Assembly: GCA_017444825.1 (NCBI GenBank)
Contig: JAFSVU010000015.1
Location: 413 to 64,412, forward strand
Origin: Clostridia bacterium
Lineage (GTDB): Bacteria; Bacillota; Clostridia; UBA1212
DNA: 64,000 nt
Direction: 5' to 3'
Shown here: in pieces, positions 1 to 52,968 of the stretch
Numbering within the stretch: the stretch's first letter is position 1
Layout of the letters: the number at the start of each line of letters is the position of its first letter
The notes under the pieces: model-generated
Databases searched by the model: none
What the model was told of the DNA's origin: nothing
The model's input: only the letters and a program-made list of their open reading frames with translations
Program-made: the position numbers and the translations under genes

Positions 1-95
1 TAAAAAGCGCACTTACTCGCCACCGCAGGCGGTGATACTGTGCTGAAAAAGAAAATCGAGTATCCATAACTGAAGTCCGTTATGAATACTCGATA

Positions 96-226
96 TGGTG
101 CGGATAGCAGGACTTGAACCTGTATGGAGTCGCCCCCACACGGACCTGATGGTAGCGTCTCCTTGGTGAAAAAGCGACATAGGAAGCCATCAAAGCCACT
201 AATACTTTTCCATATCAGTCCATTAT
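96..226 (-). repeat. att-like repeat copy 1: perfect 54-bp duplicate of the tRNA-Leu 3-prime end (96-149 = 957-1010) followed by a B arm (150-226) homologous to 3484-3571
   Basis: Positions 96-149 are identical to 957-1010 (reverse complement of the tRNA-Leu T-arm, acceptor and variable arm). Blocks tggtagcgtNNccttggtgaaaaa and ccactaatactNttcc..cagtcca are shared with the copy at 3484-3571. The repeat ends at the stop codon of ORF 226..621. Confidence 0.8.
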
Positions 227-956
227 TACTCCTCAAGAACGATATATCTTCCATTAACAAGCACCGAATGATATTTTTTGTAGAACGATAGTCCTGGCAT
301 CGATGAAAAATCTCCAAAATATCTATTCATACACAAGATCACTGACTGCAAAGGAAGTTTCAATTCATTACCATGTTCATTTTTGCATCTATGCCACCAT
401 TTCCAACGCAGCTCATTTGGGCATGATTCGAGATTTTGAGAGATACCAATATTCACATAGTAATCATCCTTCGACCAAGAAGAGCCTTGAACATGAATGC
501 ACAAGTAATAATCTCCCTGAGCTTTGTACCAGTATGACTTTGATTTGGAATAATCGTGTTTTTTAAGGTAAGAGTCTATTTTTTGGATAAATACAATTCT
601 ACTATTATTTTGGTCTGACATATGTTATCAACTCCCCAGTCCATCCTTCGCCAAGAATAGACAAATATCTGTTTAACTGGCTAATTCCTCTACTGACAGC
701 TGCTGGATTATTTGGCTTTAATTCATACAATGACCGATTTTTACTTACCCTAAACTTATCGCTGATTTGTTCTCCTAATCAAATGGATCCCGACAGTCTG
801 GGCTGGTACGGAAAAGTATTAGTGGTACTTCTAATCCTTATGCATACAAAATCCACTGAAATGATACTTCATCTTGAACTCTCAGTCAACCTTGAATTCT
901 TTCTCAATCAATCAAAAAAGCAACAGCCCCGGGACGTTAATCTCGAGGCTGCTTAG
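150..956 (-). mobile_element. remnant tRNA-integrated element (no integrase) bounded by tRNA-Leu and its 54-bp direct repeat; its only cargo is an orphan immunity-like gene
   Basis: Intact tRNA-Leu at 957-1043 and a perfect 54-bp direct repeat of its 3-prime end at 96-149. The enclosed 807 bp are AT-rich and carry a single small ORF. Confidence 0.45.
226..621 (-). CDS. orphan immunity-like protein of a polymorphic-toxin system (small, low-GC; resembles DUF4304-type immunity proteins)
   Basis: 131-aa ORF in an AT-rich patch. Motif ...WYKAQGDYYLCIHVQGSSWSKDDYYVNIGI. It terminates inside the B arm of the att-like repeat, exactly as the RHS immunity gene at 3571..3930 does. No homology to that immunity protein. 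Confidence 0.45.
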   Translation of the reverse strand: MSDQNNSRIVFIQKIDSYLKKHDYSKSKSYWYKAQGDYYLCIHVQGSSWSKDDYYVNIGISQNLESCPNELRWKWWHRCKNEHGNELKLPLQSVILCMNRYFGDFSSMPGLSFYKKYHSVLVNGRYIVLEE

Positions 957-1043
957 TGGTGCGGATAGCAGGACTTGAACCTGTATGGAGTCGCCCCCAC
1001 ACGGACCTGAACCGTGCGCGTCTGCCAATTCCGCCATATCCGC
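957..1043 (-). tRNA. tRNA-Leu (anticodon CAG), class II with long variable arm
   Basis: Reverse complement reads GCGGATA-TG-GCGGAATTGGCAGACGC-G-CACGG-TTCAGGT-CCGTG-TGGGGGCGACTCCATAC-AGGTTCAAGTCCTGC-TATCCGC-ACCA. The 7-bp acceptor stem pairs. Anticodon loop TT-CAG-GT. T-loop TTCAAGT. CCA is encoded. Confidence 0.8.
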
Positions 1044-1074
1044 ATTGGCAACTCGTTTTCAGACGAGCGGGGTT

Positions 1075-1103
1075 ATGGTACTCCTTTTTCTCGCCGTTGT
1101 CAA
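1075..1103 (-). promoter_or_regulatory. putative sigma-A promoter of tRNA-Leu (-35 TTGACA at 1098-1103, -10 TACCAT at 1075-1080, 17-bp spacer)
   Basis: Read on the minus strand. The same TTGACA-18-TAcagT arrangement is conserved upstream of the pseudo-tRNA copy at 10649-10678. Confidence 0.4.
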
Positions 1104-1248
1104 GCTTTATTTGATCCGGGGCGGTAACAAGGTCAACGACAATAAGGCCGAAATACCCCGGCCTCCGTTGTCCGCCTGCATTTTCTTCCGCAAGCTTGCG
1201 TTTAAATTTCCAAAATGTCCGCGGTCCCGCGGGAGCCATTGGCGCTTT

Positions 1249-2586
1249 TTAGTTGTGATATCTGTCATACAGAATTTCACCGCAAAGACTCAGCTTTTCG
1301 CGGAGCGTCAATGCCGTGTCGCTGACGTATTCATCTGCCCACGAGTAAACCTCTTCGGGAATTTTGCCTTCGGTAAGAAGCTTGCCCTCCAGCGTACTTA
1401 TGAGTATACGGCTGCCTTCGAGATAATTGTTTAGCTTTTCCGCGAAAGAGACCATCGAGTCCACCGGCAATGGATCTTTGCCGTTTCGGTCAAAGCTTAC
1501 GGACATACCGTCTGCCGCGTAAAACCCTTCAGTCTCCGAATAGGCGTAGAGCACGAAGGTGTAGTTGGAGATGCCCTGGTTGGTGTAGGGACAGTATTGG
1601 AGTATGCAATACTTGCCGTCAACGGTACAGAGGCTGAAGCTGTTCCATTGTGGATGGTAGCAGCTGAGCGACAGATCAAGTGTCTTTTCACCCGCCCCAG
1701 TGGCTTTCAGAATGAAGACCGGCAGGGAGTCTTCGGTGTCCATCTGCACGATTTCAACATTTTCTGTCTTGCCGTCGCCGTTAAAGTCTTCCGACAGCTG
1801 CTTCAGCGTTTTGTATCGGCGGTGTATACTGTCCTCGATGAGCTTGGCGTTTTCGGAATCGAGCCTGTGGGCAAATTGCCACGGGTTGATGATATGCTCG
1901 AAGTCTCCGGCGGTGCTTGACGTGCAGAACAGATATTCCTGCCCTATTGCCACTGTGCAGTCATCGTCACCGCCAACGCAGATCACCGGCGCCGACCCGT
2001 CGGCTGCAAGGCCTGAAGCTATGAGCAACTCTGCCTGCTCGGTTTCATTGTATCCCTTGAGGCCGCCGATCTTGCATATCTTTGTCTCTTCCGAGACCGT
2101 CCCCTTTCGCCTTTCTCCTACGGTCACCGTGTAGACCGTATGGAGCATGGCGGACGCAGTTCCTTCTTCCGCGGGATCTACCGTTTTCCCTGTTTTAAGG
2201 TCAATAACGGCAAAAGAGATATCCGAAACAACGCCGGTGAAAATATTGGTCGAGGCGTCGATTATCTCCTCCGCGGTTTTGTATACAGGCCAGTCTGCGT
2301 TCACAACGTTGTACAGATAGCCTTCTGACTCCTTTGAGTCGCCGTCCTCAGTCGAAAGATCCTTCGGATAATCTCCGGGGTCCACAGGGTGTTTGCCGCC
2401 AAGGAACCGGATGCCGAGAACCGCGGCGACCGACGCGATCACAAGAACCGCGGCAAGGGAGACCGCCAGCACTTTTACCCGCGCCGCAGTCTTTTCCTCC
2501 TTCGCCTTCTTTTTTTCTATCATTTCACCGTATTCCGGACTGTTGACGATGGAGGACATAGTCTTCCTGAATTCACCGTTTTCCAT
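1249..2586 (-). CDS. anti-sigma-factor-like single-pass membrane protein (short cytoplasmic N-terminus, one TM helix, roughly 390-aa extracytoplasmic domain)
   Basis: 445 aa. A hydrophobic helix VKVLAVSLAAVLVIASVAAVLGI follows a charged N-terminus. The gene overlaps the upstream regulator gene by 14 nt (2573-2586), the usual sigma/anti-sigma arrangement. Confidence 0.55.
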   Translation of the reverse strand: MENGEFRKTMSSIVNSPEYGEMIEKKKAKEEKTAARVKVLAVSLAAVLVIASVAAVLGIRFLGGKHPVDPGDYPKDLSTEDGDSKESEGYLYNVVNADWPVYKTAEEIIDASTNIFTGVVSDISFAVIDLKTGKTVDPAEEGTASAMLHTVYTVTVGERRKGTVSEETKICKIGGLKGYNETEQAELLIASGLAADGSAPVICVGGDDDCTVAIGQEYLFCTSSTAGDFEHIINPWQFAHRLDSENAKLIEDSIHRRYKTLKQLSEDFNGDGKTENVEIVQMDTEDSLPVFILKATGAGEKTLDLSLSCYHPQWNSFSLCTVDGKYCILQYCPYTNQGISNYTFVLYAYSETEGFYAADGMSVSFDRNGKDPLPVDSMVSFAEKLNNYLEGSRILISTLEGKLLTEGKIPEEVYSWADEYVSDTALTLREKLSLCGEILYDRYHN

Positions 2587-3073
2587 TTTTGTGCTCCTTC
2601 AGAAACTGCCTGAGTTTTCTTCTGAGTCTCGAAAGTCTCATCCTGACCGCAGGCTCTGTCATGTTAAGCTCGTTGGCGATAGTCTTGACCGTTTTCATAA
2701 ACGAGTACCGTCCCGTGAAGATCACGTTGTCCTTCGAATTCTGTTTCGACAGAAAATCCCGCAGCGCAGTCTCGAGCTCATGAGCCTCCCTGTTTTCCGA
2801 AGAGACATCAGATGCCATTTCTTCTATTTCGGCATCGATGATCCCGAGCTCCGCATGCGAGGCGTAGGCGTACCCTTTATCGCCAATGATATCGCTTTCA
2901 GCTACTCCGAAGAGCTTCGCCATTCCGGAAACAGAGCAGCCGTCAGGCACACGGGTGCCTGCCTCCCACATTGCCACGAGGGACCGGGACACGAAAAGGC
3001 GGTCCGCAAGATCCTGCTGTGTCAGGCCGTTATCATTTCTCAGTTTGGCGATGATCTCTTGAGTATCCTTCAT
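2573..3073 (-). CDS. two-HTH regulator: N-terminal XRE-family helix-turn-helix fused to a C-terminal sigma-70 region-4 (ECF-type) domain, with no region 2
   Basis: 166 aa. LRNDNGLTQQDLADRLFVSRSLVAMWEAGTRVP is a Cro/C1-type HTH. VIFTGRYSFMKTVKTIANELNMTEPAVRMRLSRLRRKLRQFL matches sigma-70 region 4.2. No sigma region-2 motifs lie between them. Confidence 0.6.
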   Translation of the reverse strand: MKDTQEIIAKLRNDNGLTQQDLADRLFVSRSLVAMWEAGTRVPDGCSVSGMAKLFGVAESDIIGDKGYAYASHAELGIIDAEIEEMASDVSSENREAHELETALRDFLSKQNSKDNVIFTGRYSFMKTVKTIANELNMTEPAVRMRLSRLRRKLRQFLKEHKNGKR

Positions 3074-3430
3074 TCTTTATCCCGTTGTCAAAAGCAATGC
3101 CGACAGTGCCGCAAAAGTATGACCGGTCACTTTTGCCCTTTCATTCTATCACAACCAAGGACGTATGTCTGTCACAAAAGGTAACAGGTCCAAGTTCCCT
3201 GAAACCGCGGGACGAAAGGCCTCATGCCGGGTCAAACCCCTTGCAATACTTCCGCGCGGTTCAGAAAAGCTTCAAGCCGTTTTCTCAGCTTGAGAAGCTT
3301 TATATGCAGATAAAAATCGAGAAAAAAAGCGTCGATAGCCATAAAAATCCGAAGGCAATGGCATCGAATGAGATTGGCTGGATTGATGAAAAAACAACCC
3401 CGAAGCATTGAATTTCGAGGTTGCTTCATG

Positions 3431-3571
3431 TTGCGGAACCGCCGCCTTGAACCTGTATGGAGTCGCCCCCACACGGACCTGATGGTAGCGTGACCTTGGT
3501 GAAAAATGTGTGCCAGCGAATATCTTTCCTGCGCATTATCCACTAATACTATTCCGTACCAGTCCACTATT
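3431..3571 (-). repeat. att-like repeat copy 3 (attP-like: B arm + 29-bp tRNA core + A-prime arm); its 45-bp stretch 3439-3483 is identical to 10540-10584
   Basis: The 29-bp core tgtatggagtcgcccccacacggacctga lies at 3455-3483. The B arm (3484-3571) is homologous to 150-226. The A-prime arm ccgccgccttgaacc is shared with the copy at 10540-10554. The repeat abuts the immunity-gene stop codon. Confidence 0.75.
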
Positions 3572-3930
3572 TAGGATAAATCAAAACTTGTATAACCCAA
3601 TTCAATTATTGCCCTTTCCAAGTCAAGAAATAATCTTACAGCGGATTGCCTTTTAAACAAATGCCATAACAGATTATCTCTCAAGACCACCTTAATTTTG
3701 GGTTTAGAATAAAAAATAAATGATAGACTTGTAATGTCCCTAGTAGCCACGCACAAAGAATTAGTTTTATTCTCAATAGAGTAGTTTTGAGCGCATTCTT
3801 TTAGAGAAATTAAAAGCTTTTTATTTTTGGAATGAAGAATTATACAGTCATTATTAATTTCAAATGAACGAGGACTAAATACATTAATCATTTGAAGATG
3901 TGCCTCCTTTTTATTGTGTAAGAAAAACAT
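3571..3930 (-). CDS. putative cognate immunity protein for the RHS C-terminal toxin
   Basis: 119-aa low-GC ORF immediately downstream of the RHS gene, overlapping it by 20 nt (3911-3930). This is the typical position of toxin-immunity pairs in RHS/WapA loci. Confidence 0.5.
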   Translation of the reverse strand: MFFLHNKKEAHLQMINVFSPRSFEINNDCIILHSKNKKLLISLKECAQNYSIENKTNSLCVATRDITSLSFIFYSKPKIKVVLRDNLLWHLFKRQSAVRLFLDLERAIIELGYTSFDLS

Positions 3931-6900
3931 TAATTATTTCATAGCCAAGCGCTCTTAATGCAGCTATTCTATGATGACCATCTGCGATTTGATACAACCC
4001 TTCTCCTATTTCTGAAACAAAAATTTTCCCGTATCCATCTTGAGGGATAGATTTGATATAATTTTCTATGACACCTTCTGCTGGTCCAACAGTGACAAAA
4101 TCGTCTGATGGATTGTTAACTATTCTATCAAGTTTTACTTTAGTTGGCACTATACCTGATTTTTGCAACAATTTTCTAATCTCGAATATAGCTGCACCGA
4201 TTATAGCACCGCCTGCTGTAGCGACAACTGTACCGCTGTTTCCTTTCTCATTAAACTCCTCTACTGAATTCGAAGTGGAAGCAGCTGACAAAACCGCCAT
4301 GCCATAAACAGCGGCCGAGCCTATAAACGCTCCAGCTGCAATAGTTGACGCTGTTGTAACACCAGCAATTCCAGAGGCAACTAAACCAACAGTAGTTGCT
4401 GCTGCAGCAAATCCTCCACAAGTAATAACAGTCGCAGCAGCACAAGCCACAACAATAGCCGCGCCTATAGCCCAATGCCACCATGCTTTTCCGCTAGGAT
4501 CAATATGGTTTACCGGATCATTCCCGCAATAACAGAACAGGTTCGTTCCAAGCGGTCCGTCCTGCAGATTCAGTTGCGAATCTGGATTTATGAATCTTCC
4601 CATTACAGGATCATAATATCTGCTCTGCAGATAATAAAAGCCGGTCTCTTTATCGTAATAATAGCCGCGGTATCTGATAGGATTGATGTAACCTATGCTC
4701 GTTGTGTCATTCGTGATGTCATTGCCGCTGCCATCTTTAATCGATACGACAGAGCCCCATGTATCGTAGGTATAAACAGCAACGACCGCGCCTGAACTGT
4801 TAATTATGTGAGTTACATCCCCCTGAATATTTCTCACATATCTGTAATGCGATGTCCCCGATCCGTTCTGATAATATGAAAACCCGCATACGCGTCCCGC
4901 TCCGTCGAAATCATAGACGATCTCATAAGAGCCGTCCGTTGCCCACTCTGATCTAAGTCTGTTGCCGATCCAACAGTACTTAATAGTTGTCAAATTTAGA
5001 GTATTGGAAATGTGGGATTTTTGCGTTCTGAGACCGTCAGCGTCATACACGTAATTGTACGGAAATGTGACTCCGTAGCCTTTGGCTGAAGCAAGTCTGT
5101 TCCCCTGCGTCCATGTTAGATCTCTTAGGAAATATTTTGTCGGATTGTATATCGCATCATAGCCGAAATATGTAGAAGTTCCGTAATATGTGGTCAAAAG
5201 ATCGCTGTACGAGTTCAAATACCCGCTGACAGCAAAGGCAACATGCTGAACGCTTGACTCGAGATTTTGTGTTAACACGGTCGGGCTGTACGGAAATGTA
5301 ATCTTTGCGGTTCTGTTTCCTCGATTATCGTAGTAGTATTTGATCGTGTATCCGTTCCCGCTATTCAGCTTTTTGTTGTCTTCACGAATGAGCTGCCCCA
5401 ATGAATCGTATTCAAAGTTGTGGGTTTGAACACCTTTTTCCGAAATCGTCTTGATCTTTCCGTTTTCATAATAGGTGTATGTCAAAGTCGGTACGGATGA
5501 TATTGAACATGTTTCCGAGGAAACAAGAGCAGTCTCATTCGAAACGCTATAGAAATGATCATTGTACAAGACGCTGCTTGTTTTTGTAAGATACGTATAT
5601 GATTTGGTTAACGGAGTGCTTGAATTGCCGTAACTCGATGATGTGATCCTTCCGAAATTATCGAATGTAATAACCTTTTTCGCAAAAGTACCGGTCCCGG
5701 TTATTGTCTTATTGCCTTCGTCAACTGTTGTTATCGACCTGTACTCCAATCCTGTAAAAGCTGTTGTAAAACGTTCGTATTCCGTATTCGTGCCCGTAGA
5801 GTAATGATAGGTCACTTCATTGCCGTCGCTCGAAAGGATATATACAAGTTTTCCTTCCTGATCGTAACTGTATTCTTTTGTGACAGTACCGGCGGAATTC
5901 GACCGGTCGATATATTTAACAACGTTCCCTTTCTGGTCATAAAACCATGCGAAAGTCGCATTGTCCACAGTTGCGTTTGCCGAAAAAGCTATGAATTTAA
6001 GATTTCCCTGAGCATCGTAACTGTAATACTTTGTCTGACCGTTTCCATAATCCAGCCTTGTCAATAAACCGTATACTCCGTATGTGTAGGAGGCCATGTT
6101 TCGAAGCAGGCTTGCATTGCTGTCTAAAATGGAAAATGAAGTCTTTTTACCCTCATTGTTTCTATCAAAACAATAGGAAATAGTATCTCCGGTGACACTT
6201 ATGCTGTCCGCGGAATAGCTCATTCCGAACGAAGCAGTTCCGACGGTTTCCGAAGACAAGCGTCCGTATGAATCGTACGTGTAGTAAGTGACCGTTCCGT
6301 CTCCGTCAGTAACAGACAGGAGATCCTGCGTTGTCAAAGAATAGGAATATGTGATATATCTTCCCGAATCGTCTGTTTCCTTTTCAAGCAAAGATCCGTC
6401 AGACGAATAAATAAAGAACCGGTGAGATGTCTCATTGCCGTTTGTATCCACTTCTATTTCGGTTACGCTTCCGTGCGAGTTATACGCATAATACGTTTGC
6501 GTGCAAATGTCAGAGCTACCTGCGGCGCTCGGAACGAACAATTCGGTGACTGACGTGATCTGTGTCGGAATCAGACTGTTGTACTCATATGTTACCGTTG
6601 TCTCGTTGTTTCTTCGATCATTTGAAACCGTTTCGGTAAGCAGTGAAGGGATATACGGATCATACGAGTATTCGGTCCATATGCCCGAAAAAGTCCTCTC
6701 TTTTTCAATTCGCCCTAACAGATCATAATAGTATAAACTTCTGTCCGAATAGTCGCCTATCTTGTTAACATATTCCACCGTAACACCGCCGAACAGAACG
6801 TCGGTATAGTTGTAGTCATTTACGAGACTGACGGTGACGTAGCCCGAATAGCTTTCTACGGGGATTATTACACTAAAAAACTGCCAGTCCTTCGTCGCAG

Positions 6901-9900
6901 AAGAAAACAGGAATTCTTCATCCGGGACATTTCCGTTGCCAAAATGCAGAACTATTCCGAATCTTCCTGTGGTGACAGCTTTGCCTTTACCGAATCCGCT
7001 GACAACAAGATACGCTCCGGAATATACGGGTGTAGACAGCACCTGGCTGACACTCCTCGTTTGACCTATGTTTCCCGGAACCGATATACTTCTGATACGT
7101 TCGTTTGTGACAACGGTCGGAGTAAACGATCCGCTCACTGTCCATGCGGATAACCCGTTATAGAACCCGCTGTCGGAGATCTGATTTGCCGGTCTTGAAT
7201 TTGCACCCTCAGTGAGCGAAACAAGGTCGAAATATAGATTGCCGCTGAGATTTTTGACGCCAATGAGTATGTATATGCTCCCTGCCGTTGCCGAATCCGG
7301 TATTTCAAATGTGTACTGGGCAGTCGCGTCGAGATCATAATTGAGACAAGGAGAAAGCAATCTTACGTTCGAAGTAGAAGCAGTGTTGTACATTATCCCA
7401 AGGACAACTCCTCCGAATCCGTTTAATGATGCAACATCTACATCGGCAGACAGAGTGTATGTTTTCCCGGGCACTGCGGCCGACACCGGATACTTTGCGT
7501 AGACTTCCGAAGACTGACTCGACGAATACAGTCTGAAACAATCACTTCCGTGTTTTGACGATAAAAAATGACCGCTGGTATCCGCGGAATAAAGACCTCC
7601 TGACCCGGACACGGAATACAAAACCCACGAACTGGTTTTTTCCGAGAAATCTTTTACAAGATTGCTGTCGACCATCAAAGACGAAGTCTTACCGGTAACG
7701 AGATGCATATTCGACAGATCTTCGCCGTCATATTCACTCCCGGAAACGTTTCCGTAGCTGTCAAATACCGAGGATGTCCGTCCGTTTCTGTCAAAATATA
7801 TGTACTCTGTCCAGATAGCGTCAATGGACAGAAAACCATACCTGTAACCATATTCGGTATGGTCTCCATACGTGATATATGCTATCTCACTCATACCATA
7901 AACGCCTTCGTCGTCTGCAGCGTATTTAATGATATATGATACCCGGTTTATTCCGTTAGTTGCGCCCGAGGTGTATCCAAACTGAACATATTGTCTGTCA
8001 TAGGTCTCGGCAGATGTTTTTCTGTACCCGAATCGGGATATGGTTCCGTTTGTGTTGTATGCAAATGTGCTACTTTCCCCAGAAGATGTGTTTATTGCTG
8101 TAAGATAATTGCCGGTATATGAGAAAGAAATACCGCGCAGAGGACAATCCGCGTTTTCGACTGTCGTAAGTCGCGAGCCGCTATAGACAAAATCGATCTC
8201 CAAACCGCTTCCGTCAAAAACACAATTAATTTGAGAAGATGATCCTGAATAACAGATTATATAGCTATCACCGTATTCATTTTCGAATTCGCAAAGATAA
8301 CCGTAAGAATTGAAATATGCCTTACTTCCATCGCTGAATTCGATCATCCTTGCTGCCGGATCGTAGAGATCGAACGGATTTTCTTCGGAGAAATAAAAAT
8401 AGCCCGACCCGGGGACAAAGTAGTGTTTTGCTCCGGTTCCGTCTGTAAGGACATAATAGGTGTATGTGTCGTCGTTGATATCCGTGACTGTCTCTGCCTT
8501 CATCGTCTGCATTATCGAAGGTCTCCAGCCTGTTCCGTAATATGTATCCGTCGCCGTGCCGATAAATGAAGAATTAAACACCAGATCAACGGACACAGGC
8601 AATATCTCACCTTTAGTGGAAATCCCCGGATGAATGAATGTCAAATCACCATTTATGTCTTTGATACATGCCGTTCCTGAACCGTCAATGGAAATTCTGT
8701 GAGTGGACTGATATGAATTAAGTCCTGAGTGATCCGCATAAGTAATTTGAAGTGCAGTAAGGACACTATGTGCAAAAGACGGCATTGTTCCGTAAAGGCA
8801 TTCCGCTCCAAACATGAATCCATTGTTTGCGCCTGAAAAAGTGTGGCGCATTACATTGGTGATATCAAGATCAAAATAGATATTTGCATAAGGTAGGAAA
8901 ATATACTGGTTCCTGCAGGAATCCGTCAGTCCCTCAAAAGCGGAAGGAACCGAAGGCAGTGTTCCTCCCGCCAGGACTGCCTGTGGAGACCACGTATCAC
9001 TGATCATTTCAGACCGAAACGCATAGGTGCCGGTGTAAGTGACCGGGGATGAATTATTGACACTAAATGATGCTACTGCATGCGTGATAACTGCACTGTC
9101 GGGAATTCCGTTTAAAATACAGTCATCAAATTTGATGTAAGAAACCGTGTTTGCGCCCACTGCGATCGTATTCCACCGCGTTGAGCCGTTGACATATACT
9201 GCCTCATAAGCGTAATCATCATCCGGATACGAAATGCTGATCGTAGGATCGATTTTGACGGGAAATTCCCTGTTCTCATCATTTATCCACTCTGCATCGG
9301 CAATGACAGTGATAAGATAACCGTTTTCGGTTTCAACAAGAGTGAGAAAGACTTGATCCGAACATTCGTCCTTGGCGTCTTTCATATACTCTGCGGTCAA
9401 TTTGTAAACTGCGTTTCCGGATTCATCATATATGAAAACACAGTTGTCTTTTAGCAAAGCACTGCTGTTATTTACTGAAAGAATAAACGGGTATACGTAC
9501 TGTTCGAAACCGCCCTCGTTTACGACAATATTTTCTTTTATCTCATAGGGCTTTATCGAATATTCAAGAGAAGCGGAAGGAGAAGTGTCAGAACCTGAAA
9601 ACAAATTATTGTAAACAACAGTCCCGTTCTCACAGGGGTTTTCGGTCAGCAGTTCATCATCGGTGTGAGTAGCCGATTCATACCGTGCCTCAGAAGGTTC
9701 TGCTAAAGAAGTAACGGGAGTAAGAGAAAGAGATACACCGTTGTAATCAAGATCAATTAGTTCATTGGCGTCTTCCGAAGAAGCAGCAAACGAGAGTGTA
9801 TAGGGAGCATCGGTAGTTGAAAGTCGTCCCTCCTGCTCGTGAAGAGTAAGGTTGATCTTCTTCCATACTCCCTCACCGGTTTTGTAATTGACCGGGCTGC

Positions 9901-10357
9901 CGAACACTAAACGTGTATGGTTACCGTTTCTAAGAGCATAATCTCTCGTAAAAGCACTGTTAAGATCCGGTTTCTGATAGCTGACATCGGAGCGTTTGTA
10001 GGGATCAATGTTCTCGACAGTCGCAGGTTGCCCGAGTTTTTCCAGCGCAAGCTGTTCATATTCCGATAATTTGTCAGGATATGATATCTCACCGGGTACA
10101 GGATCACCTTCGGGCGTTTCAGGATATTTGGGCAATGCGGTATAGTCAGGATCAAGAAGCGTTGCGGGTGATTCTTCAGCATAAACATTTGAAAAGATCC
10201 TTGTCGGTATCAACGTGGCAAATATTGCCAAAACAAGGACAATCGCAACAGTTTTGATACCTATGCTGAAATGCCTAATGTTGTTATCCATTATTAACAC
10301 TCCGAAATGAGCCGATGCATACGATGCATACTTTCTTTTTATGCTTTGATTATACAT
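3911..10357 (-). CDS. RHS/YD-repeat polymorphic toxin (WapA-like, secreted) with a C-terminal ParB/Srx-like nuclease toxin domain
   Basis: 2148 aa. An alternative start at 10291 (GGAG ribosome-binding site) gives MDNNIRHF...SNVYA|EE, a signal peptide. There are dozens of YD repeats (YTYDSYGRL, YSYDAQGNL, YSYDQEGKL, YVYDADGLRTQK, YTYDTWGSV). The RHS core ends YYLQSRYYDPVMGRFINPD and is followed by LFCYCGNDPVNHIDPSGK, a DPxG-type autoproteolysis motif. The C-terminal region (about 200 aa) has a Gly/Ala-rich hydrophobic segment followed by KIFVSEIGEGLYQIADGHHRIAALRALG, a ParB-type GxHRxxA box. GC content is lower than the flanks. Confidence 0.85.
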   Translation of the reverse strand: MYNQSIKRKYASYASAHFGVLIMDNNIRHFSIGIKTVAIVLVLAIFATLIPTRIFSNVYAEESPATLLDPDYTALPKYPETPEGDPVPGEISYPDKLSEYEQLALEKLGQPATVENIDPYKRSDVSYQKPDLNSAFTRDYALRNGNHTRLVFGSPVNYKTGEGVWKKINLTLHEQEGRLSTTDAPYTLSFAASSEDANELIDLDYNGVSLSLTPVTSLAEPSEARYESATHTDDELLTENPCENGTVVYNNLFSGSDTSPSASLEYSIKPYEIKENIVVNEGGFEQYVYPFILSVNNSSALLKDNCVFIYDESGNAVYKLTAEYMKDAKDECSDQVFLTLVETENGYLITVIADAEWINDENREFPVKIDPTISISYPDDDYAYEAVYVNGSTRWNTIAVGANTVSYIKFDDCILNGIPDSAVITHAVASFSVNNSSPVTYTGTYAFRSEMISDTWSPQAVLAGGTLPSVPSAFEGLTDSCRNQYIFLPYANIYFDLDITNVMRHTFSGANNGFMFGAECLYGTMPSFAHSVLTALQITYADHSGLNSYQSTHRISIDGSGTACIKDINGDLTFIHPGISTKGEILPVSVDLVFNSSFIGTATDTYYGTGWRPSIMQTMKAETVTDINDDTYTYYVLTDGTGAKHYFVPGSGYFYFSEENPFDLYDPAARMIEFSDGSKAYFNSYGYLCEFENEYGDSYIICYSGSSSQINCVFDGSGLEIDFVYSGSRLTTVENADCPLRGISFSYTGNYLTAINTSSGESSTFAYNTNGTISRFGYRKTSAETYDRQYVQFGYTSGATNGINRVSYIIKYAADDEGVYGMSEIAYITYGDHTEYGYRYGFLSIDAIWTEYIYFDRNGRTSSVFDSYGNVSGSEYDGEDLSNMHLVTGKTSSLMVDSNLVKDFSEKTSSWVLYSVSGSGGLYSADTSGHFLSSKHGSDCFRLYSSSQSSEVYAKYPVSAAVPGKTYTLSADVDVASLNGFGGVVLGIMYNTASTSNVRLLSPCLNYDLDATAQYTFEIPDSATAGSIYILIGVKNLSGNLYFDLVSLTEGANSRPANQISDSGFYNGLSAWTVSGSFTPTVVTNERIRSISVPGNIGQTRSVSQVLSTPVYSGAYLVVSGFGKGKAVTTGRFGIVLHFGNGNVPDEEFLFSSATKDWQFFSVIIPVESYSGYVTVSLVNDYNYTDVLFGGVTVEYVNKIGDYSDRSLYYYDLLGRIEKERTFSGIWTEYSYDPYIPSLLTETVSNDRRNNETTVTYEYNSLIPTQITSVTELFVPSAAGSSDICTQTYYAYNSHGSVTEIEVDTNGNETSHRFFIYSSDGSLLEKETDDSGRYITYSYSLTTQDLLSVTDGDGTVTYYTYDSYGRLSSETVGTASFGMSYSADSISVTGDTISYCFDRNNEGKKTSFSILDSNASLLRNMASYTYGVYGLLTRLDYGNGQTKYYSYDAQGNLKFIAFSANATVDNATFAWFYDQKGNVVKYIDRSNSAGTVTKEYSYDQEGKLVYILSSDGNEVTYHYSTGTNTEYERFTTAFTGLEYRSITTVDEGNKTITGTGTFAKKVITFDNFGRITSSSYGNSSTPLTKSYTYLTKTSSVLYNDHFYSVSNETALVSSETCSISSVPTLTYTYYENGKIKTISEKGVQTHNFEYDSLGQLIREDNKKLNSGNGYTIKYYYDNRGNRTAKITFPYSPTVLTQNLESSVQHVAFAVSGYLNSYSDLLTTYYGTSTYFGYDAIYNPTKYFLRDLTWTQGNRLASAKGYGVTFPYNYVYDADGLRTQKSHISNTLNLTTIKYCWIGNRLRSEWATDGSYEIVYDFDGAGRVCGFSYYQNGSGTSHYRYVRNIQGDVTHIINSSGAVVAVYTYDTWGSVVSIKDGSGNDITNDTTSIGYINPIRYRGYYYDKETGFYYLQSRYYDPVMGRFINPDSQLNLQDGPLGTNLFCYCGNDPVNHIDPSGKAWWHWAIGAAIVVACAAATVITCGGFAAAATTVGLVASGIAGVTTASTIAAGAFIGSAAVYGMAVLSAASTSNSVEEFNEKGNSGTVVATAGGAIIGAAIFEIRKLLQKSGIVPTKVKLDRIVNNPSDDFVTVGPAEGVIENYIKSIPQDGYGKIFVSEIGEGLYQIADGHHRIAALRALGYEIINVFLTQ

Positions 10358-10529
10358 CGTTTCCGACGGTCAAATCAATTGATTTTAAGCAGTTCATCGT
10401 AAGAGCAAGCGTCGCCTTTGGCTTGCCGATAAAGCGCAAGACCTTCGGCAAATGAACGGGCGGAAGCCCTGACCCACTTGCAAAAAACAATACAACCCCG
10501 AGAAAACGGTGATTCCCGAGGTTGTTTAA

Positions 10530-10620
10530 TGGTGCGCGGCCGCCGCCTTGAACCTGTATGGAGTCGCCCCCACACGGACCTGATACCTAAGCGCGTCTGC
10601 CAATTCCGCCATATCCGCAT
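10530..10620 (-). pseudogene. tRNA-Leu-derived pseudo-tRNA (attL-like: authentic 5-prime acceptor and D-arm, 29-bp core, foreign A-prime 3-prime end; anticodon and T stems no longer pair)
   Basis: The reverse complement begins GCGGATATGGCGGAATTGGCAGACGCGC, identical to the intact tRNA through the D-arm. It continues TTAGGTA-TCAGGTCCGTG...GGTTCAAGGCGGCGGCCGCGCACCA, which cannot form the anticodon stem, T stem or acceptor stem. Confidence 0.7.
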
Positions 10621-10648
10621 TGGCAATTCGTTTAAAACGAGCGGGGTC

Positions 10649-10678
10649 ACTGTACTCTTTTTGTCATACCCTTGTCAA
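10649..10678 (-). promoter_or_regulatory. retained tRNA-type promoter (-35 TTGACA at 10673-10678, -10 TACAGT at 10649-10654) upstream of the pseudo-tRNA, co-oriented with the RHS gene
   Basis: It has the same architecture as the promoter of the intact tRNA-Leu (1075-1103), and 55 bp of upstream sequence are conserved between the two loci. Confidence 0.35.
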
Positions 10679-10692
10679 GCACTGTTTGATTC

Positions 10693-10729
10693 GCGGCCGC
10701 CCCTCGGGGGAGAGGCGGCGCATTTTTTA
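10693..10729. terminator. GC-rich hairpin (gcggccgcccctc/gggggagaggcggc) flanked by an A6/T6 tract; terminator-like, orientation ambiguous
   Basis: The hairpin is followed by TTTTTT on the plus strand. The T-run overlaps the stop codon of the minus-strand gene 10727..15910. No U-tract follows the hairpin on the minus strand. Confidence 0.3.
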
Positions 10730-13700
10730 CTCAAACTTCCATTTGTCTTTTTCGTTGATCGTCACCCTGATCCTGTCTGTCAGGCTGAACGCTCCTGTGC
10801 GTGGGTTCCTGATGTACGCGCTCTCCGCCGTAAACGTTCCCTCCACAGCGCCGCGTATCACGTAGGATACCGAGATCTCAAAGCCGTATTCGGGGCAGTC
10901 CTGTCTGAACCAGTTATTCTCGTTTTCGTAGATGCGGTTGTGCAGCGAGACGCCTCCCGTCATATTCTGGCCGCTGCTGTTATAAATGTAAGCGTATGCC
11001 GCCACCGTTCCGGACTCATACCGGGAGGAGGAGCTCGAGTCGATCGAGAGGAATCTGGCACCCGACGGTATCAGATCATAGAGTTCAAAGTACTCGTTTA
11101 CTCTGGTCGATCTTCCGCTGATTCGGAGAGTCACCAGGCAGTTGCCGTGGGAGTCATTGGTCATTGCCTTGGTTATCGAGACACGGCCGTCAGACTTTTG
11201 TCCGTCCAAAAGGGCCTCCTCCATGGTTCCCCTGTAATACACTCCCACCTTTGTGTCTCCTGGCAGACTCGTCTTCAACGAGTCAAGCTCCTGCTTTGAA
11301 AGAGTCAACGTAAAACTGCATCCCGGTTCGATCTTTACCGTCTCGGACGATTCGCCGATAGTATAGGTAAATTCGAGAGCATCAGCGGCTTCCCGGGGCA
11401 GGAAATGCTTGATATACGCGGCAAGTGCTATTCTGTCAGACACCGAATTCGTTCTGTTTTCGGAAAGCCAAAGCGCCAGCTTCGCGGCATCTTCCCGGTC
11501 GATCCTTGCGGCGCTCATGAGGGCAAGGCAGGACAGCTGAACAGTCGTGTCAAAATCACCGGCTTCGAACTTCAGCGAGCCGTATTCGCTGTCTTCAACG
11601 CCAATTTCAGACTTTACAAGAGCATAGACGTCATGTGCCGCGGGGTAGTCGCCGCAGACGGCAAAACCAAGTGCCAGCAGGAGCTTCGCCTCCGGAGAGT
11701 AGTTGCCCGCTTTGTCTGCGATCACGTAAAGTGTATCCAGAACGGGTTCTCCCAGCGCCGCCAGTGACACGACATTCGAGATCAGTTTCTCGGGCGACTC
11801 CTGATCGGTCGAGTTGACCGACGTACTGCAGGCTGATGCTATGTAATTCAAGGTTTGAGTGTCAAACGGCAGCCCGAGAGTCAGTACCAGAGCAGTCAGT
11901 TCGGGATCCGGCTCCGAATAGGGGAATACCCGGAACTGTCCGTCCGAAGCCGAGAAGTTGTCCTTCGTCAGCCTCATGAGCCTTTCCTGCTCCTGATCCG
12001 CCTTGATTCCGTAGAGGGCTTCCCTTGCCGCGGCTGCCGCGTAAAGACCCGCATATTCATCGGTCCTGCCGCTTCCCCTGTCGTTTGACAGCAGGCTTGT
12101 TATCCTTTCGTAGAAAGCGTAGGACGGCGTTCTGTTCGCAAACACAACTTTAACGGGATAGTACACAGGCGTGATGGTCTTGAGTTCGGAAACAGCCAAT
12201 GATCTTCCCACATCCGCGGCAACGGCACTCGTCACGAGGGTGAAGTCCGTTGTCGCAGCATCTTTGTTTTCTCCGCATTCCGCGTACACGGTCACGTGGT
12301 ACTGTCCCGGCTCCGACAGCTCGAATTTCAGCCAGCACCTCTCCTTTGAGTCTGCGCTGCCCGACGTTCTTCCTTTTTCATTGCCGAGAGCATCCGTAAG
12401 CACCGCGGTGTAGTTGACCGTTCCCGTAGCTTCCGATCCGTAGGATCTTGCGCTGAGGGATATTGTATCGCCAACGATATACTGCTCGCATATTCCTACA
12501 TTTACGAAGAAAGGCAGGGTGCAGATCACGTCCGAGACCGATGCGCCGATCTTCAGCTTTCCGTTTTCGGAGCCCGTGCCGCAAAGCGCATATGTCGAGA
12601 TCCTCCATGAAGTGATGTTGTCGGGGACGGTGAAGACCAGTGTCCCGCAGCCGTCACTGTCGAGTTCCACCACGTCATAGACCGGATTGTCCGCGAAATA
12701 CTTTCTTATATACCAGTCCGAGCTGCCGATGCCGCCGTCGCTGAGCCCTTCTGATTCGGGAGCCGCGCCCGGCCTTTCATCTGATAACGACAGAGAGTTA
12801 TCGGAACCGCCCTTTGAGCTCTTGGAGCCATTACTGTATGAAAGATCTCCGTAATCAACGTCCGAGTTTGTAAATGCCGGTTTAAACCTTGCGTTCATGA
12901 GAAACGTCGCTGCGCTCGACCGCTGTTTCGAGAAAATGCTCAAGGGCTCTATCTCCTGATCGCCGAGGGCAAAGCAGGCTTCATCGACGATGCTGACCAC
13001 AGCAACTCCGCCTCCTGCTCCGGGCACCTGAATCTTAATAATGGCTTTGTCCCCGGGCTTGTACGTATCCGAAGACGGGGTGATCACGGGTTTCAGCGTC
13101 GCATTGGCGGTGTCGTACCTGATCTCTTCGCCGGGTATCAGATACTCTCCGGTGGAGGAGTCGAAGACCACGGCGTAGAGATATCCGTCCGCTATCATAC
13201 TGTCGGTAAACGAAAACCGTACTTTTGACCCGTATTCCACCCCATAGATCCCGTTTGATCTTATAACAAACAGCGCTTTCCTCTTCTCCGGCGCAGTCCA
13301 GATCTCCGCCTCCACAGTGTCGCTTACCGAGTAGGTTTCGTCATTGAACAGGATCTCGGCCGTCAGGGATTGGTTGCTGCCGGAATAACCGGTGCCCGTC
13401 TTGCCCGCGGTACCGTTTAACGTATAGGTGTAAGTGTTGTTGCTCGTGTCATCGTAGAATGACACTTCGTAGGTGTAATATCCCTCAAACCCGCTGACCT
13501 CAAGGAGCGGGAACTCCGCAACACCGTTGACAAAGGACTTGACGTCGCTTTCGACCTGACTCTTGCGTACCTCGCAGGTATAATATTTAACGTTTTTCTT
13601 GGTGTATGAGTCGTACCTGGTCTTTTCGGTCCTCACTATGACGTTCTTCCAGAGCGTATAGGAAAGCGCATTTGCGGCTGACAGAGGCTCGCCAACGGTA

Positions 13701-51050: not shown

Positions 51051-51275
51051 GTAGGGCCATCTCCAATTCATGGTATTTAGACTTTTCAGTGACTACAGAT
51101 AGATAAAATAAGGGGAGAATTGTCAAGTGTTTTTGCGGCAGGCAGGTTTGGCCCGAGGTGTGAGTTTGTTTGGTGCCAGTTTGGCACCTTATTGCAGTAT
51201 TTCTCGTGCCATTTTGGCATTAAAGCAGTTGATTTTATGGTGCCAAAACTGTACAATATTGGCGAGGTGATAAAA

Positions 51276-51746
51276 ATGTCTGTACGACAGCTACGCGAAT
51301 CAAAAGGATTGACGCAGATTCAATGCGCTGAATACCTGCAGATCCCCATCCGGACATACAGGCGATATGAATCCGACGAGAACAAGATCAACCGGATCAA
51401 ATATCAGTACATTATCGATCGACTTAATGCATACGGCCTGATTGATGAAACACACGGAAAGCTGACGATTGACCGGATCAAGGAAGTCTGCAGCCAAATT
51501 TTTCCTTCATATTCAGTGGAGTATTGTTTCCTGTTCGGTTCCTACGCCAAGGGGACAGCGACGGAGACCAGCGACGTTGACCTGCTTGTTTCCGTACCGG
51601 TCAACGGGCTGAAGTTTTTTGAATTGATAGAGCTGCTTCGTGAAAACCTGAAGAAAAAAGTGGATCTTCTGGATGTGGCACAGCTAAACAACAATCCAAC
51701 GCTGGTGCAGGAAATACTAAGAGATGGGGTCAAAATATATGGATAG
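51276..51746 (+). CDS. mnt: MNT-type nucleotidyltransferase antitoxin with N-terminal XRE helix-turn-helix
   Basis: GGCGAGGTG ribosome-binding site. HTH LRESKGLTQIQCAEYLQIPIRTYRRYE. Nucleotidyltransferase motif LFGSYAKGTATETSDVDLLV. Confidence 0.7.
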   Translation: MSVRQLRESKGLTQIQCAEYLQIPIRTYRRYESDENKINRIKYQYIIDRLNAYGLIDETHGKLTIDRIKEVCSQIFPSYSVEYCFLFGSYAKGTATETSDVDLLVSVPVNGLKFFELIELLRENLKKKVDLLDVAQLNNNPTLVQEILRDGVKIYG

Positions 51747-52077
51747 CGCAAAGAATGATGAATACTATGTTGAAAAGATAAAATCCGACTTGAAGTTTGT
51801 GATCGATCACACTGCCGGAAAATCGAGAGAAAAAATCGAATCCGACGAGCTACTCGTTGATTCTATCATGTTCCGTATTATTCAAATTTCAGAGAATAAC
51901 GGAAACCTCACAGAGGATTTCAAAGCCGCACACACCAATGTCCCTTGGATTGCCATCAAGGGCATGCGCAACAAAATCGTACACAATTACGGTCATGTTG
52001 ACTTTGCCATTGTATACGACACAGTTATTCGCGGAATACCTGAGATGCTAAAACAACTAGAAACACTGTCTGATTGA
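51739..52077 (+). CDS. hepT: HepT (DUF86) RNase toxin
   Basis: 8-bp overlap with mnt. Rx4HxY motif MRNKIVHNY. Confidence 0.7.
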   Translation: MDSAKNDEYYVEKIKSDLKFVIDHTAGKSREKIESDELLVDSIMFRIIQISENNGNLTEDFKAAHTNVPWIAIKGMRNKIVHNYGHVDFAIVYDTVIRGIPEMLKQLETLSD

Positions 52078-52111
52078 GTGAAACCCTGTGTGTAAGGGAT
52101 GGCCGTTCCGG

Positions 52112-52936: not shown

Positions 52937-52968
52937 ACTCCTCCGTGGTCCATCCTGTTCTTTCAGCC

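Follow-up and report, generated by a model that had tools for sequence, protein, structure and literature searches.

Why are parts of one tRNA gene repeated around toxin and immunity genes, and what kind of recombination could have placed them there? The question is raised by a stretch of 64,000 nt (the window) from a Clostridia bacterium of the lineage UBA1212 (assembly GCA_017444825.1, contig JAFSVU010000015.1, positions 413 to 64,412), near one end of which four partial or complete copies of tRNA-Leu(CAG) alternate with cargo such as the gene for an RHS polymorphic toxin and small immunity-type genes. The answer favoured here, with a probability of roughly 60%, is that the copies are attachment (att)-type sites formed by crossover inside a tRNA-derived core, and that they bound recombinase-less toxin/immunity cassettes resembling cis-mobilisable elements (CIMEs), the relatives of which carry a TnpX-like serine recombinase and target the anticodon of tRNA-Leu.

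The 29-nt core described in the initial annotation is indeed present four times in the same orientation (forward strand, at 121, 982, 3454 and 10555) with 0 mismatches, against 0 copies expected from 100 shuffles; the tRNA itself reads on the minus strand. Exact extension confirms two perfect direct repeats, one of 54 nt (96-149 and 957-1010) and the other of 45 nt (3439-3483 and 10540-10584). The block present in all four copies is 37 nt and not 29 nt long (113-149, 974-1010, 3446-3482 and 10547-10583). On the tRNA strand it runs from U33, TCAG being U33 plus the anticodon CAG, via the 3' side of the anticodon stem and the variable arm into the T loop. To its left stands either a tRNA 5' half (C, C') or an arm named B, and to its right either the true 3' end of the tRNA (A) or a GC-rich, non-functional end (A'), an assignment of arms that agrees with the one first given.

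Site 1 (96-149, minus strand) is a copy of the tRNA-Leu 3' half from U33-CAG onward, identical to 957-1010, with A at 96-120 and the core at 121-149. The attB-type site is the intact tRNA-Leu(CAG) itself (957-1043, minus strand; C 1011-1043, core 982-1010, A 957-981), the lone tRNA recognised by ARAGORN and Rfam (46.5 bits); Rfam gave nothing else within 1-11000. Site 3 (3430-3482, minus strand) joins the core (3454-3482) to a second non-functional 3' end, A'2 (3430-3453). Site 4 (10530-10618, minus strand) is a pseudo-tRNA, C'-core-A', recognised by sequence comparison and left unscored as a tRNA by ARAGORN and Rfam even at E<=1. It has the tRNA-Leu 5' half with its promoter, and its anticodon stem, T arm and acceptor stem are all broken. 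C and C' are 98% identical over 43 nt and 81% over the promoter region, and both are preceded by a TTGACA-type promoter match (TTGACA-17-TACCAT at 1075-1103 and TTGACA-18-TACAGT at 10649-10678, minus strand). A hairpin terminator follows each copy on the same strand: at 55-94 (terminator scan; 16-bp stem, then a T run), at 915-956 behind the tRNA (CAGCCTCGAG...GGGGCTG plus a T run, a form that recurs after most sites), at 3386-3429 (hairpin and T run read from the sequence) and at 10492-10525 (terminator scan). Three other contigs retain a degraded 5' half of tRNA-Leu (GCGGAGAAAAGCGGAACTGGCAGACGCGCACGG), its upstream flank being the same in each (L012, 4300-4400; L033, 600-745; L076, reverse complement 3470-3640; related contigs are cited by such labels). 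Its presence in metagenome-assembled genomes (MAGs) of different names suggests an old, inherited disruption of the host tRNA.

The sites bound two segments of low GC content (0.31-0.45 in cargo against about 0.53 in the backbone), 150-956 and 3484-10539, which are disjoint and lie in series; the nesting proposed in the initial annotation does not hold. Measured between crossover points, the RHS and immunity unit is about 7.1 kb and the other 0.8 kb long. The smaller has as its only gene a putatively immunity-like DUF4304 open reading frame (ORF) of 131 aa (226-621, minus strand; PF14137, E=3.5e-10; GC 0.35). The larger encodes an RHS protein of 2148 aa (3911-10357, minus strand; Pfam RHS_repeat, with TEN_YD-shell among precomputed matches), with its C-terminal toxin region after ...NHIDPSGK, and an immunity-like ORF of 119 aa (3571-3930, minus strand; called as 106 aa, no Pfam match). 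Between site 3 and the tRNA lie two further genes (1249-3073, minus strand), for proteins of 445 aa (no Pfam match) and 166 aa (HTH_3, sigma-70 region 4). These are probably host backbone, because in another species (L074) the same pair followed by tRNA-Leu adjoins gyrBA. The B-core-A'2 site found upstream of the pair in the window is absent there.

The B arm is composite and consists of a proximal block of 24 nt (B-prox), a spacer of 22 or 33 nt and a 27-mer abutting the stop codon of the cargo gene. The two B-prox copies (150-173 and 3483-3506, minus strand) are identical at 22 of 24 positions, and the two 27-mers, one straight after the stop codon of the DUF4304 gene (196-222, minus strand) and one after that of the 119-aa gene (3540-3566, minus strand), at 24 of 27. 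On the tRNA strand the B-prox of site 1 reads TTTTTCACCAAGGAGACGCTACCA; this proposed recombinase half-site is the block that stands in about 60 sites of other loci, and the B-prox of site 3 is where homology to the L066 group of contigs, discussed below, begins. An inverted 27-mer (799-825, plus strand) closes the outer end of the conserved 3' flank of the tRNA (the P' arm).

The array continues beyond the window. Contig L001 (ENA ERZ28019070) comes from the same strain (a single mismatch over the 13,073 nt of window 1-13073, 99.99%) and reaches 7.4 kb past window position 1. It adds two sites of the form B-prox-core-A'-terminator, 1.9 and 3.4 kb past that position, for a total of six co-oriented sites. 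In the direction of the tRNA the order is pseudo-tRNA; RHS and 119-aa genes; site; 166-aa and 445-aa genes; tRNA; DUF4304 gene; site; a helix-turn-helix (HTH) gene (117 aa) and genes of 182 and 119 aa; site; genes of 266 and 110 aa; site. Beyond the last site, SLFN/AlbA_2 and UvrD-like genes lie on the other strand. In 5/5 cases a B-ended unit points the same way as the tRNA and has B-core at its end; the sites are tRNA-derived, not attC-like. After each extra site (L001 14943-15153 and 16438-16648) there is a sequence 92% identical to window 799-1010, which holds the tRNA 3' half, terminator and inverted 27-mer. Of the view that the copies are att sites, the crossover inside a tRNA-derived core has stood, and the single nested system of attL, attP, attB and attR has given way to a serial array of at least six sites.

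Sites of this kind are widespread in rumen Clostridia. A search pattern spanning B-prox and the anticodon loop matched 11 loci in MAGs (labelled Mageeibacillus sp., Ruminococcus sp. or Clostridia bacterium) and 39 in rumen metagenome contigs, about 50 loci in all; viral contigs gave no B-TCAG site and one match, probably by chance, that resembled the second half-site B2 described below. Many contigs have 2-4 sites, all in one orientation, and the genes 5' of the sites are nearly always co-oriented with them. The cargo is diverse. RHS proteins of about 2,100-2,280 aa followed by 1-2 small ORFs are found in 18 loci, and others have AbiEi/AbiEii, AAA_14/DUF4143 and AAA_21 ATPases, BspA-type leucine-rich repeat (LRR) proteins, an HNH protein or, in many cases, small ORFs without a Pfam match. 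The B arm is therefore not the ordinary 3' untranslated region that might have been suspected, as it is recurrent, sharply bounded and stands at the end of widely differing cargo in about 50 loci. Over 41 sites that differ in upstream sequence, the information content is about 0.2 bits per position at -90 to -31, 0.57 bits at -30 to -21, about 1.8 bits at -20 to -1 and 1.9 bits over TCAGGTCCGT, positions -19 to +12 being partly imposed by the search pattern. B-prox is also present at all sites that were found independently of the pattern, namely four in L001, those of L066 and L075 and the second sites L019-1886, L022-8545, L023-2856 and L027-1489. Every fragment copy with an intact junction has B-prox immediately 5'. 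The variable arms of the 3' halves differ among copies (GGGGGCGACTCC, GAGAGTTCTCTC, GGAGGTCCCTCC, GAAGGCTACTTC and GAGGATCCCCTC), even within one contig (L021, L035, L058), and the hairpin is always kept, as would be expected if each half once sat in a working tRNA.

Could such a pattern arise with no recombination system at all? The copies might be duplicated tRNA-Leu genes and pseudogenes, or a tRNA-like 3' RNA module acting as a processing or terminator signal and selected at the ends of toxin/immunity operons. The intrinsic terminator-like hairpin after each site and the two promoter-bearing 5' halves are what one would look for in that case. This is nevertheless very improbable, as fragments without a 5' half cannot fold as tRNA, Rfam finds the real tRNA alone, T loops and acceptor ends are often destroyed where B-prox and TCAG are retained, and the inverted B2 junctions and recombinase linkage described next have no place in it.

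The point of exchange can be bounded from both sides. C and B diverge at the left limit of identity, which puts the crossover at or right of TCAG, and junctions of other types than C/B put it at or left of TCAG. The exchange is therefore placed within TCAG, the minimal sequence common to all junction types, as comparison of copies had been expected to reveal. At the sites of the window the identity extends over 37-54 nt, since the tRNA half travels along. The informative junctions involve a second half-site, B2 (TTTTTCACYGAGGTAAC plus 5 nt), which stands inverted (B2inv) directly after a tRNA 5' half: after ...TTCAG in L033, L045 and L076/L077 and after TCAGGTCCT in L057. Unrelated DNA follows B-TCAG in L014, L020 and L030. 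In L042 B and inverted B2 are joined through a single TCAG (TTTTTTCACCAATGTCAC-ACTACCA-TCAG-TTACC-GTTACCTCAGTGAAAAA), which yields a quasi-palindrome of 50 bp (oriented 8268-8318); B-prox and B2 together form an inverted repeat of 17 nt. B and B2 thus appear to be the two element-side half-sites, and B-TCAG-B2inv is, by size and symmetry, a candidate for the attP of a serine integrase. A module of B2inv, about 75 nt and an intact tRNA-Leu is near-identical in L076 and L042; 5' of it lies the decayed host 5' half (C) in L076 and an RHS cassette ending in B in L042. Similarly, L045/L029 have a unit of 8.6 kb, C-TTCAG-B2inv...RHS (opposite strand)...27-mer-B-TCAGGTCCGTGTG, with no recombinase inside. 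Crossover by the recombinases TnpX and TndX takes place at a GA dinucleotide; TCAG has CTGA as its complement.

Which enzyme could act at these sites? The initial annotation stated that the window encodes no recombinase, and the statement is borne out by Pfam searches of 36 ORFs, motif regular expressions, tblastn with a serine recombinase, and hidden Markov models (HMMs) of tyrosine and serine recombinases run on six-frame translations of the window and L001 (best E = 0.35). A relaxase was likewise absent from window 1-64000 and L001. The relatives are different. In L066 a large serine recombinase of 588 aa (Resolvase, Recombinase, Zn_ribbon_recom; motif YYRLSRDED), recovered via precomputed Pfam matches and then tblastn, has an RHS leader on one side and, on the other, a terminator with the final 38 nt of tRNA-Leu behind it. 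A relative of 72% identity (L021/L036/L047) stands upstream of the RHS leader, a 2,281-aa RHS gene, a 239-aa gene and a B arm, and past its stop codon come a terminator and CTATCCGCACCA. Past the stop codon of a 75% relative (L075) there is a terminator and then a full A-core-B, in tRNA orientation B-core-A-terminator-recombinase. In a 71% relative (L076/L077), MobC and a relaxase lie ahead of the gene, the terminator and 23 nt of the tRNA 3' end follow, and an intact tRNA-Leu stands 6 kb further on in the same orientation. All four members of the clade that were tested (4/4 lineages, 71-100% identical to the 588-aa query) have a terminator behind the stop codon and, with it, 3' sequence of tRNA-Leu, whereas homologs of 64-65% identity lie away from tRNA-Leu (0/2), one pair adjoining guaA.

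The initial annotation had proposed looking for a recombinase next to a B-core site, and the large serine recombinases of L075, L066, L021 and L076 answer to that description. In two lineages (L066; L021/L036/L047) the recombinase, RHS leader, RHS gene or remnant, and B arm make up one unit. The terminator and flank behind the L021 recombinase also follow A'-type sites of L011, L039, L040 and L054. A relaxase adjoins the recombinase in L076 and L082. The recombinase family is very large, its closest solved relatives being TnpX of Tn4451 (catalytic domain) and SprA of SPbeta. Judged from gene neighbourhood and site structure, a tRNA-Leu-specific clade of TnpX-like large serine recombinases is the most likely enzyme.

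A tyrosine integrase was considered as well. The copies could be inert scars left by serial insertion of tyrosine-integrase elements (phages, integrative and conjugative elements (ICEs)) at the tRNA-Leu anticodon loop, the serine recombinases being unrelated neighbours at a hotspot. A direct repeat comprising the 3' part of a tRNA from the anticodon loop to CCA is the classical signature of such integrases, and the 54-nt repeat runs from U33 to CCA; in L056 the C-terminus of a tyrosine recombinase lies about 60 nt past a B-core-A site; dead T loops, A' ends and the pseudo-tRNA speak of decay; and scattered partial tRNAs are known from the tRNA-proximal islands of tycheposons. This explanation is held to be unlikely all the same. 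A tyrosine recombinase is found in 1 of about 50 loci and in neither the window nor L001, and among its relatives on longer contigs the closest is a remnant adjoining tRNA-Pro. The 22-24 nt of B-prox are kept across species and the sequence 5' of them is not; the inverted B2 and 50-bp palindrome fit a serine-recombinase site rather than arm-type tyrosine sites; adjacency to the serine recombinase is clade-specific (4/4 against 0/2); and cassettes 90-95% identical in different arrays, together with polymorphism on 99% backbones, argue for recent activity.

Other candidates for the enzyme were set aside. The tyrosine integrase has its sole match at the end of contig L056, in a family that is mostly truncated; its closest member on a longer contig is the remnant beside tRNA-Pro, and others (L061) lie by tRNA-Pro with no Leu site. 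In L056 (oriented 3130-3598) this recombinase has a C-terminal extension that resembles an AP2 or arm-binding domain (GTGGIYRLNDHLYEGRF...). Its relatives (L059-L064) are mostly of 150-270 aa or split in two ORFs and stand beside tRNA-Pro(TGG). A protein of about 200 aa found by many last sites (CL3) was rejected as a small recombinase, the sequence being TetR-like and probably part of flanking or cargo DNA. The TetR-like gene adjoins a site, its 3' end toward it, in L013, L021, L036, L037, L046, L047, L050, L022, L053 and L075, and in L021/L047 the recombinase-RHS element has a copy on either side, the two having diverged to 88-93% identity. None of 40 cargo and neighbour proteins of related loci proved to be a recombinase, their Pfam matches being RHS, AbiEi/AbiEii, AAA_14/DUF4143, AAA_21, LRR_5, HNH_5, transporters, enzymes or nothing. 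Likewise, L021 was rejected as a circular contig because its two terminal sites differ in variable arm and flank.

Comparison of related loci shows cargo changing at site boundaries in L001, L066 and L070, one of two outcomes foreseen for such a comparison; the other, an empty site, was not seen. Contigs L066-L073 were reached through a copy of the 445-aa protein with 98% identity. The L066 group matches the window only over 3506-957, from site 3 (B-prox) up to and including the final base of the tRNA (2.55 kb, 99.0%), and in the RHS leader (88%). An earlier description of L066 as a sibling strain was toned down since the matches are limited to these two parts. On the left flank of this group, the place of the RHS and immunity genes is taken by a 231-aa lipoprotein-like gene, ahead of which L066 keeps the RHS leader and about 20 RHS codons. 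On the right, ICE-like genes (DUF4314, LPD28, D12 methylase, ArdA, YodL) begin directly after the CCA of the tRNA. L070 agrees with L066 at 99.86% over 6.9 kb, up to CCA, directly after which a third flank begins. For the RHS element of L021/L036/L047 two different right flanks exist as well, the change between them falling at the tRNA half. The use of 445-aa homologs as a route to an empty site ended with the L066 group and L074, neither of them offering a clean one.

The DNA adjoining CCA deserves a note of its own. An element resembling an ICE or an integrative and mobilisable element (IME), which includes SpoVG, lies right after the CCA of tRNA-Leu (L066 11631-21338; L021 oriented 12944-12974) and ends in GTTGTATGGCCTTAATAGATCGG. 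It is a second class of element, which uses the 3' end of tRNA-Leu and not the anticodon.

Modules are also shared between arrays, and their limits tell a different story from the flanks. The 119-aa gene with its B arm (L001 9123-9685) recurs without the toxin, at 95% identity, as the second cassette behind tRNA-Leu in L022 and L053; in both contigs the genes 5' of the tRNA are others. A 110-aa gene with B arm (90-94% identity) is the first unit in L022/L053 and lies behind AbiEi/AbiEii in L014, L017, L020 and L030. The homology of such shared modules begins just 5' of the small gene and not at the site; for the 119-aa immunity cassette it starts 37 nt before the RHS stop codon. Since homology starts inside cassettes, homologous recombination also reshuffles them, which goes against the initial proposal of a route that is an alternative to homologous recombination.

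It may then be asked whether homologous recombination suffices. The module of B-prox, tRNA 3' half and terminator (up to about 300 bp) could serve as portable homology for RecA-dependent exchange after DNA uptake, as in RHS orphan arrays, with no dedicated recombinase. Site modules 85-100% identical over 54-214 nt would allow it, and the breakpoints just 5' of immunity-type genes, the RHS gene of L066 cut to about 20 codons and a window free of recombinase are all in its favour. It leaves unaccounted, however, the origin of the first B-TCAG-tRNA fusions, the constant TCAG junction with four kinds of partner (C, B, B2inv, unrelated DNA), the 17-nt inverted repeat of B-prox and B2, and the tie of one recombinase clade to the site. 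As a complete explanation it is accordingly quite unlikely.

The favoured reading, crossover at the anticodon by a TnpX-like recombinase, can be put as a course of events. The four copies (six in the strain) would serve a family of integrative elements in rumen Clostridia as attachment-type sites, recombination taking place at U33-C-A-G of tRNA-Leu(CAG). The tRNA would be the attB-type site, the B arm (TTTTTCACCRAGGTNAC plus 7 nt) the element-side half-site, and B fused to a tRNA 3' half the junction at the distal end of each inserted unit. The clade recombinase would catalyse exchange at TCAG between the anticodon arm of the tRNA and an element site, of which the left half is B and the right half either B2inv or a tRNA 3' half. 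With B2inv as right arm the tRNA would be destroyed, and some elements carry a whole replacement tRNA. With a tRNA 3' half the products (C-TCAG-half and B-TCAG-half) would have the same form as the substrates, so that an intact target would persist and B-type junctions would accumulate downstream. As incoming units bring a tRNA 3' half or a whole tRNA-Leu, the intact tRNA would be kept or regenerated by the newest unit, and older units with displaced 3' halves would pile up downstream of it. Alternatively, elements with a whole tRNA may integrate canonically and the duplicated 5' halves collapse by homologous recombination, the end state being identical.

The autonomous element would consist, in tRNA orientation, of a tRNA 3' half, terminator, recombinase (opposite strand), regulators, RHS leader, RHS gene, immunity gene, 27-mer and B arm. 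The units of the window would then be recombinase-less versions of the RHS element that may move today only if a recombinase is supplied in trans; alternatively, homologous recombination may reshuffle them, with the repeated site modules (about 100 to 300 bp) as the regions of homology. In the window no DNA separates the terminator behind A' from the RHS leader: the two meet at GCAAGTGG, the point upstream of which L066 keeps the recombinase module.

Several observations weigh against this reading. No recombinase is present in the 64-kb window or the 7.4 kb beyond it (L001). Neither an excised circle nor an empty site turned up for the units of the window, nor did an identical cassette elsewhere, and the claim that they are trans-mobilisable is to that extent unsupported. 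The link between recombinase and site is one of adjacency, and the tRNA fragments beside the recombinases are truncated in 3/4 cases (38, 23 and 12 nt), the clean B-core-A being that of L075. The site of L056 is followed by a tyrosine recombinase instead. As most loci were found with a pattern requiring B-prox, its conservation is partly one of ascertainment. L001 and the L066 group, which match over 2.55 kb and the RHS leader, may belong to different species. The C' junction has a substitution of 8-9 nt near the crossover for which there is no explanation, and the non-functional 3' ends, which many halves have, recur as two families, A' and one with a GGGGG T loop. Finally, B-TCAG-tRNA half would count formally as the attR of a canonical serine integrase, and to line up several attR sites behind a single attB takes a bidirectional TnpX-like enzyme or extra steps of homologous recombination.

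A bolder version, which is possible though clearly less probable than the favoured reading, is that of a tRNA-anchored platform for cassette capture comparable to an integron. A TnpX-like recombinase, resident elsewhere or on a visiting IME, would insert and excise small circular cassettes with toxin/immunity, Abi and further defence genes at the anticodon of tRNA-Leu(CAG), each of which would bring a replacement 3' half. Integration would then yield an intact target once more, together with a B-type site; the array could grow without limit, and any stretch from the tRNA to a B site could leave as a circle.

Several known systems share parts of the arrangement. As in CIMEs, defined along with their tandem accretion with ICEs and IMEs in PMC5704250, the units of the window are bounded by att-type sites of an integrative family, lack genes for integration and transfer and lie in tandem at the target gene, and autonomous relatives with a recombinase (L066, L021/L036/L047 and L075, with MobC and relaxase in addition in L076) use the same type of site. 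They differ in that the units here are numerous and of 0.8-2 kb, the recombinase is of the serine and not the tyrosine type, the target is a tRNA anticodon, and mobilisation is only inferred. Likewise, Tn4451/Tn4453 (TnpX) and Tn5397 (TndX) encode recombinases with the same Resolvase/Recombinase/Zn_ribbon_recom composition, and a relaxase is a neighbour in L076 and L082. For Tn4451-type enzymes 2 bp of identity is enough, and neither integration nor excision depends on a directionality factor (PMC5704250). Short crossover identity and such factor-independent integration and excision would explain the arrays of B-type junctions. In contrast, Tn4451 has low target specificity and disrupts its targets, whereas the present clade is linked to a single tRNA gene, for which most units bring a substitute 3' half or a whole tRNA. 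The window itself has neither the large serine recombinase nor the relaxase/oriT module of a Tn4451-like IME. IMEs with serine recombinases normally disrupt dispensable genes, and the tRNA-targeting IMEs listed in a review all use tyrosine integrases (PMC5704250).

The tycheposon islands of Prochlorococcus also have an intact proximal tRNA, partial tRNAs between cargo blocks, degenerate elements without integrase and strain differences beside the tRNA (bioRxiv 10.1101/2020.12.28.424599). Unlike them, the present arrays have no replication or integrase modules, keep the element-side arm across species, carry mainly polymorphic toxin/immunity and abortive-infection cargo and belong to a different host clade. 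The rAID-1 arrays of Bacteroidales and integrons share with the window co-oriented small immunity-type genes of low GC, a repeated intergenic element and a suspected dedicated recombinase, but have a tyrosine recombinase at the array head and repeats that are not tRNA-derived (bioRxiv 10.1101/471110). The array of the window has no adjacent recombinase, the neighbours of the tRNA being the 445-aa and 166-aa regulator-like proteins; its repeats are tRNA halves, and it includes full toxin genes.

The tRNA-dependent lysogeny of mycobacteriophages (PMC10865867) finds a parallel in L076, L042, L045 and L033, where integration destroys the host tRNA (C-TTCAG-B2inv). Two of these, L076 and L042, also carry an intact tRNA-Leu gene of that isotype, situated about 60-75 nt in from the end of the element. 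Those phages, however, use tyrosine integrases and a common core of about 10 bp (PMC10865867), whereas the elements here are not phages and the units of the window restore the tRNA with a 3' half. RHS orphan toxin/immunity arrays are similar in that a full RHS gene with immunity gene lies near extra small immunity-type genes, and modules are common to several loci. They differ in that no orphan unit here keeps rhs core-coding sequence, the only RHS-homologous ORF in L001 being the full-length gene (by clustering), and in that the units are delimited by tRNA-derived sites and also carry AbiE, ATPases and LRR proteins. Serial integration anchored at a tRNA, CIMEs and serine-recombinase IMEs are thus all known already; what is new is the combination of a serine recombinase, crossover in the anticodon, carried tRNA halves, tiny cassettes and toxin/immunity/defence cargo in many rumen Clostridia.

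Some further features accompany the cargo. A conserved leader of about 80 nt precedes the RHS gene (10403-10481, minus strand) and also stands 5' of RHS genes or a remnant in L019, L021, L028, L036, L042, L047 and L066; in L009 it is present with no RHS gene after it. The leader (GTGGGNCNGGGCTTCCGCCCGTTTCATTTGCCGAAGG...CAAGCCAAAGGCGAYGCT) begins right after the site terminator, has no Rfam match, and folds in an alignment into two hairpins without covariation. The C-terminal region of the RHS protein (3914-4540, minus strand) has, after ...NHIDPSGK, a long hydrophobic stretch rich in Gly/Ala and ends in ...LYQIADGHHRIAALRALGYEII. It contains a DGHHR motif that we take, by eye, to be reminiscent of ParB-like nucleases; there is no Pfam match. 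Exact look-up of the DUF4304 protein returned the same context only, and the 119-aa protein, the gene for which is called from a later start, was not on record in an exact-protein look-up. An alpha-2-macroglobulin-like protein of 1727 aa (Big_5, A2M_BRD, A2M, MG2; 10727-15910, minus strand) flanks the promoter of the pseudo-tRNA. A second defence-type cluster lies far from the array (51120-53748 and 61559-63345), with an HTH and nucleotidyltransferase protein, two adjacent TIR_2 proteins and a pair of DUF6577 and AbiEii.

What would follow for these bacteria? If the favoured reading is right, rumen Clostridia swap polymorphic-toxin, immunity and anti-phage genes as tiny recombinase-less cassettes at the anticodon of one tRNA, and the system would be a Firmicutes counterpart of integrons and of the immunity arrays of Bacteroidales (rAID-1). 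A tRNA-specific clade would join the large serine recombinases, which are valued in genome engineering and are normally reported as disrupting protein-coding genes. The candidate attB (the tRNA-Leu anticodon arm) and the candidate 50-bp attP (B-TCAG-B2inv) are defined well enough for direct testing, and B-prox together with TCAG would provide a sequence tag by which such cargo may be mined from metagenomes.

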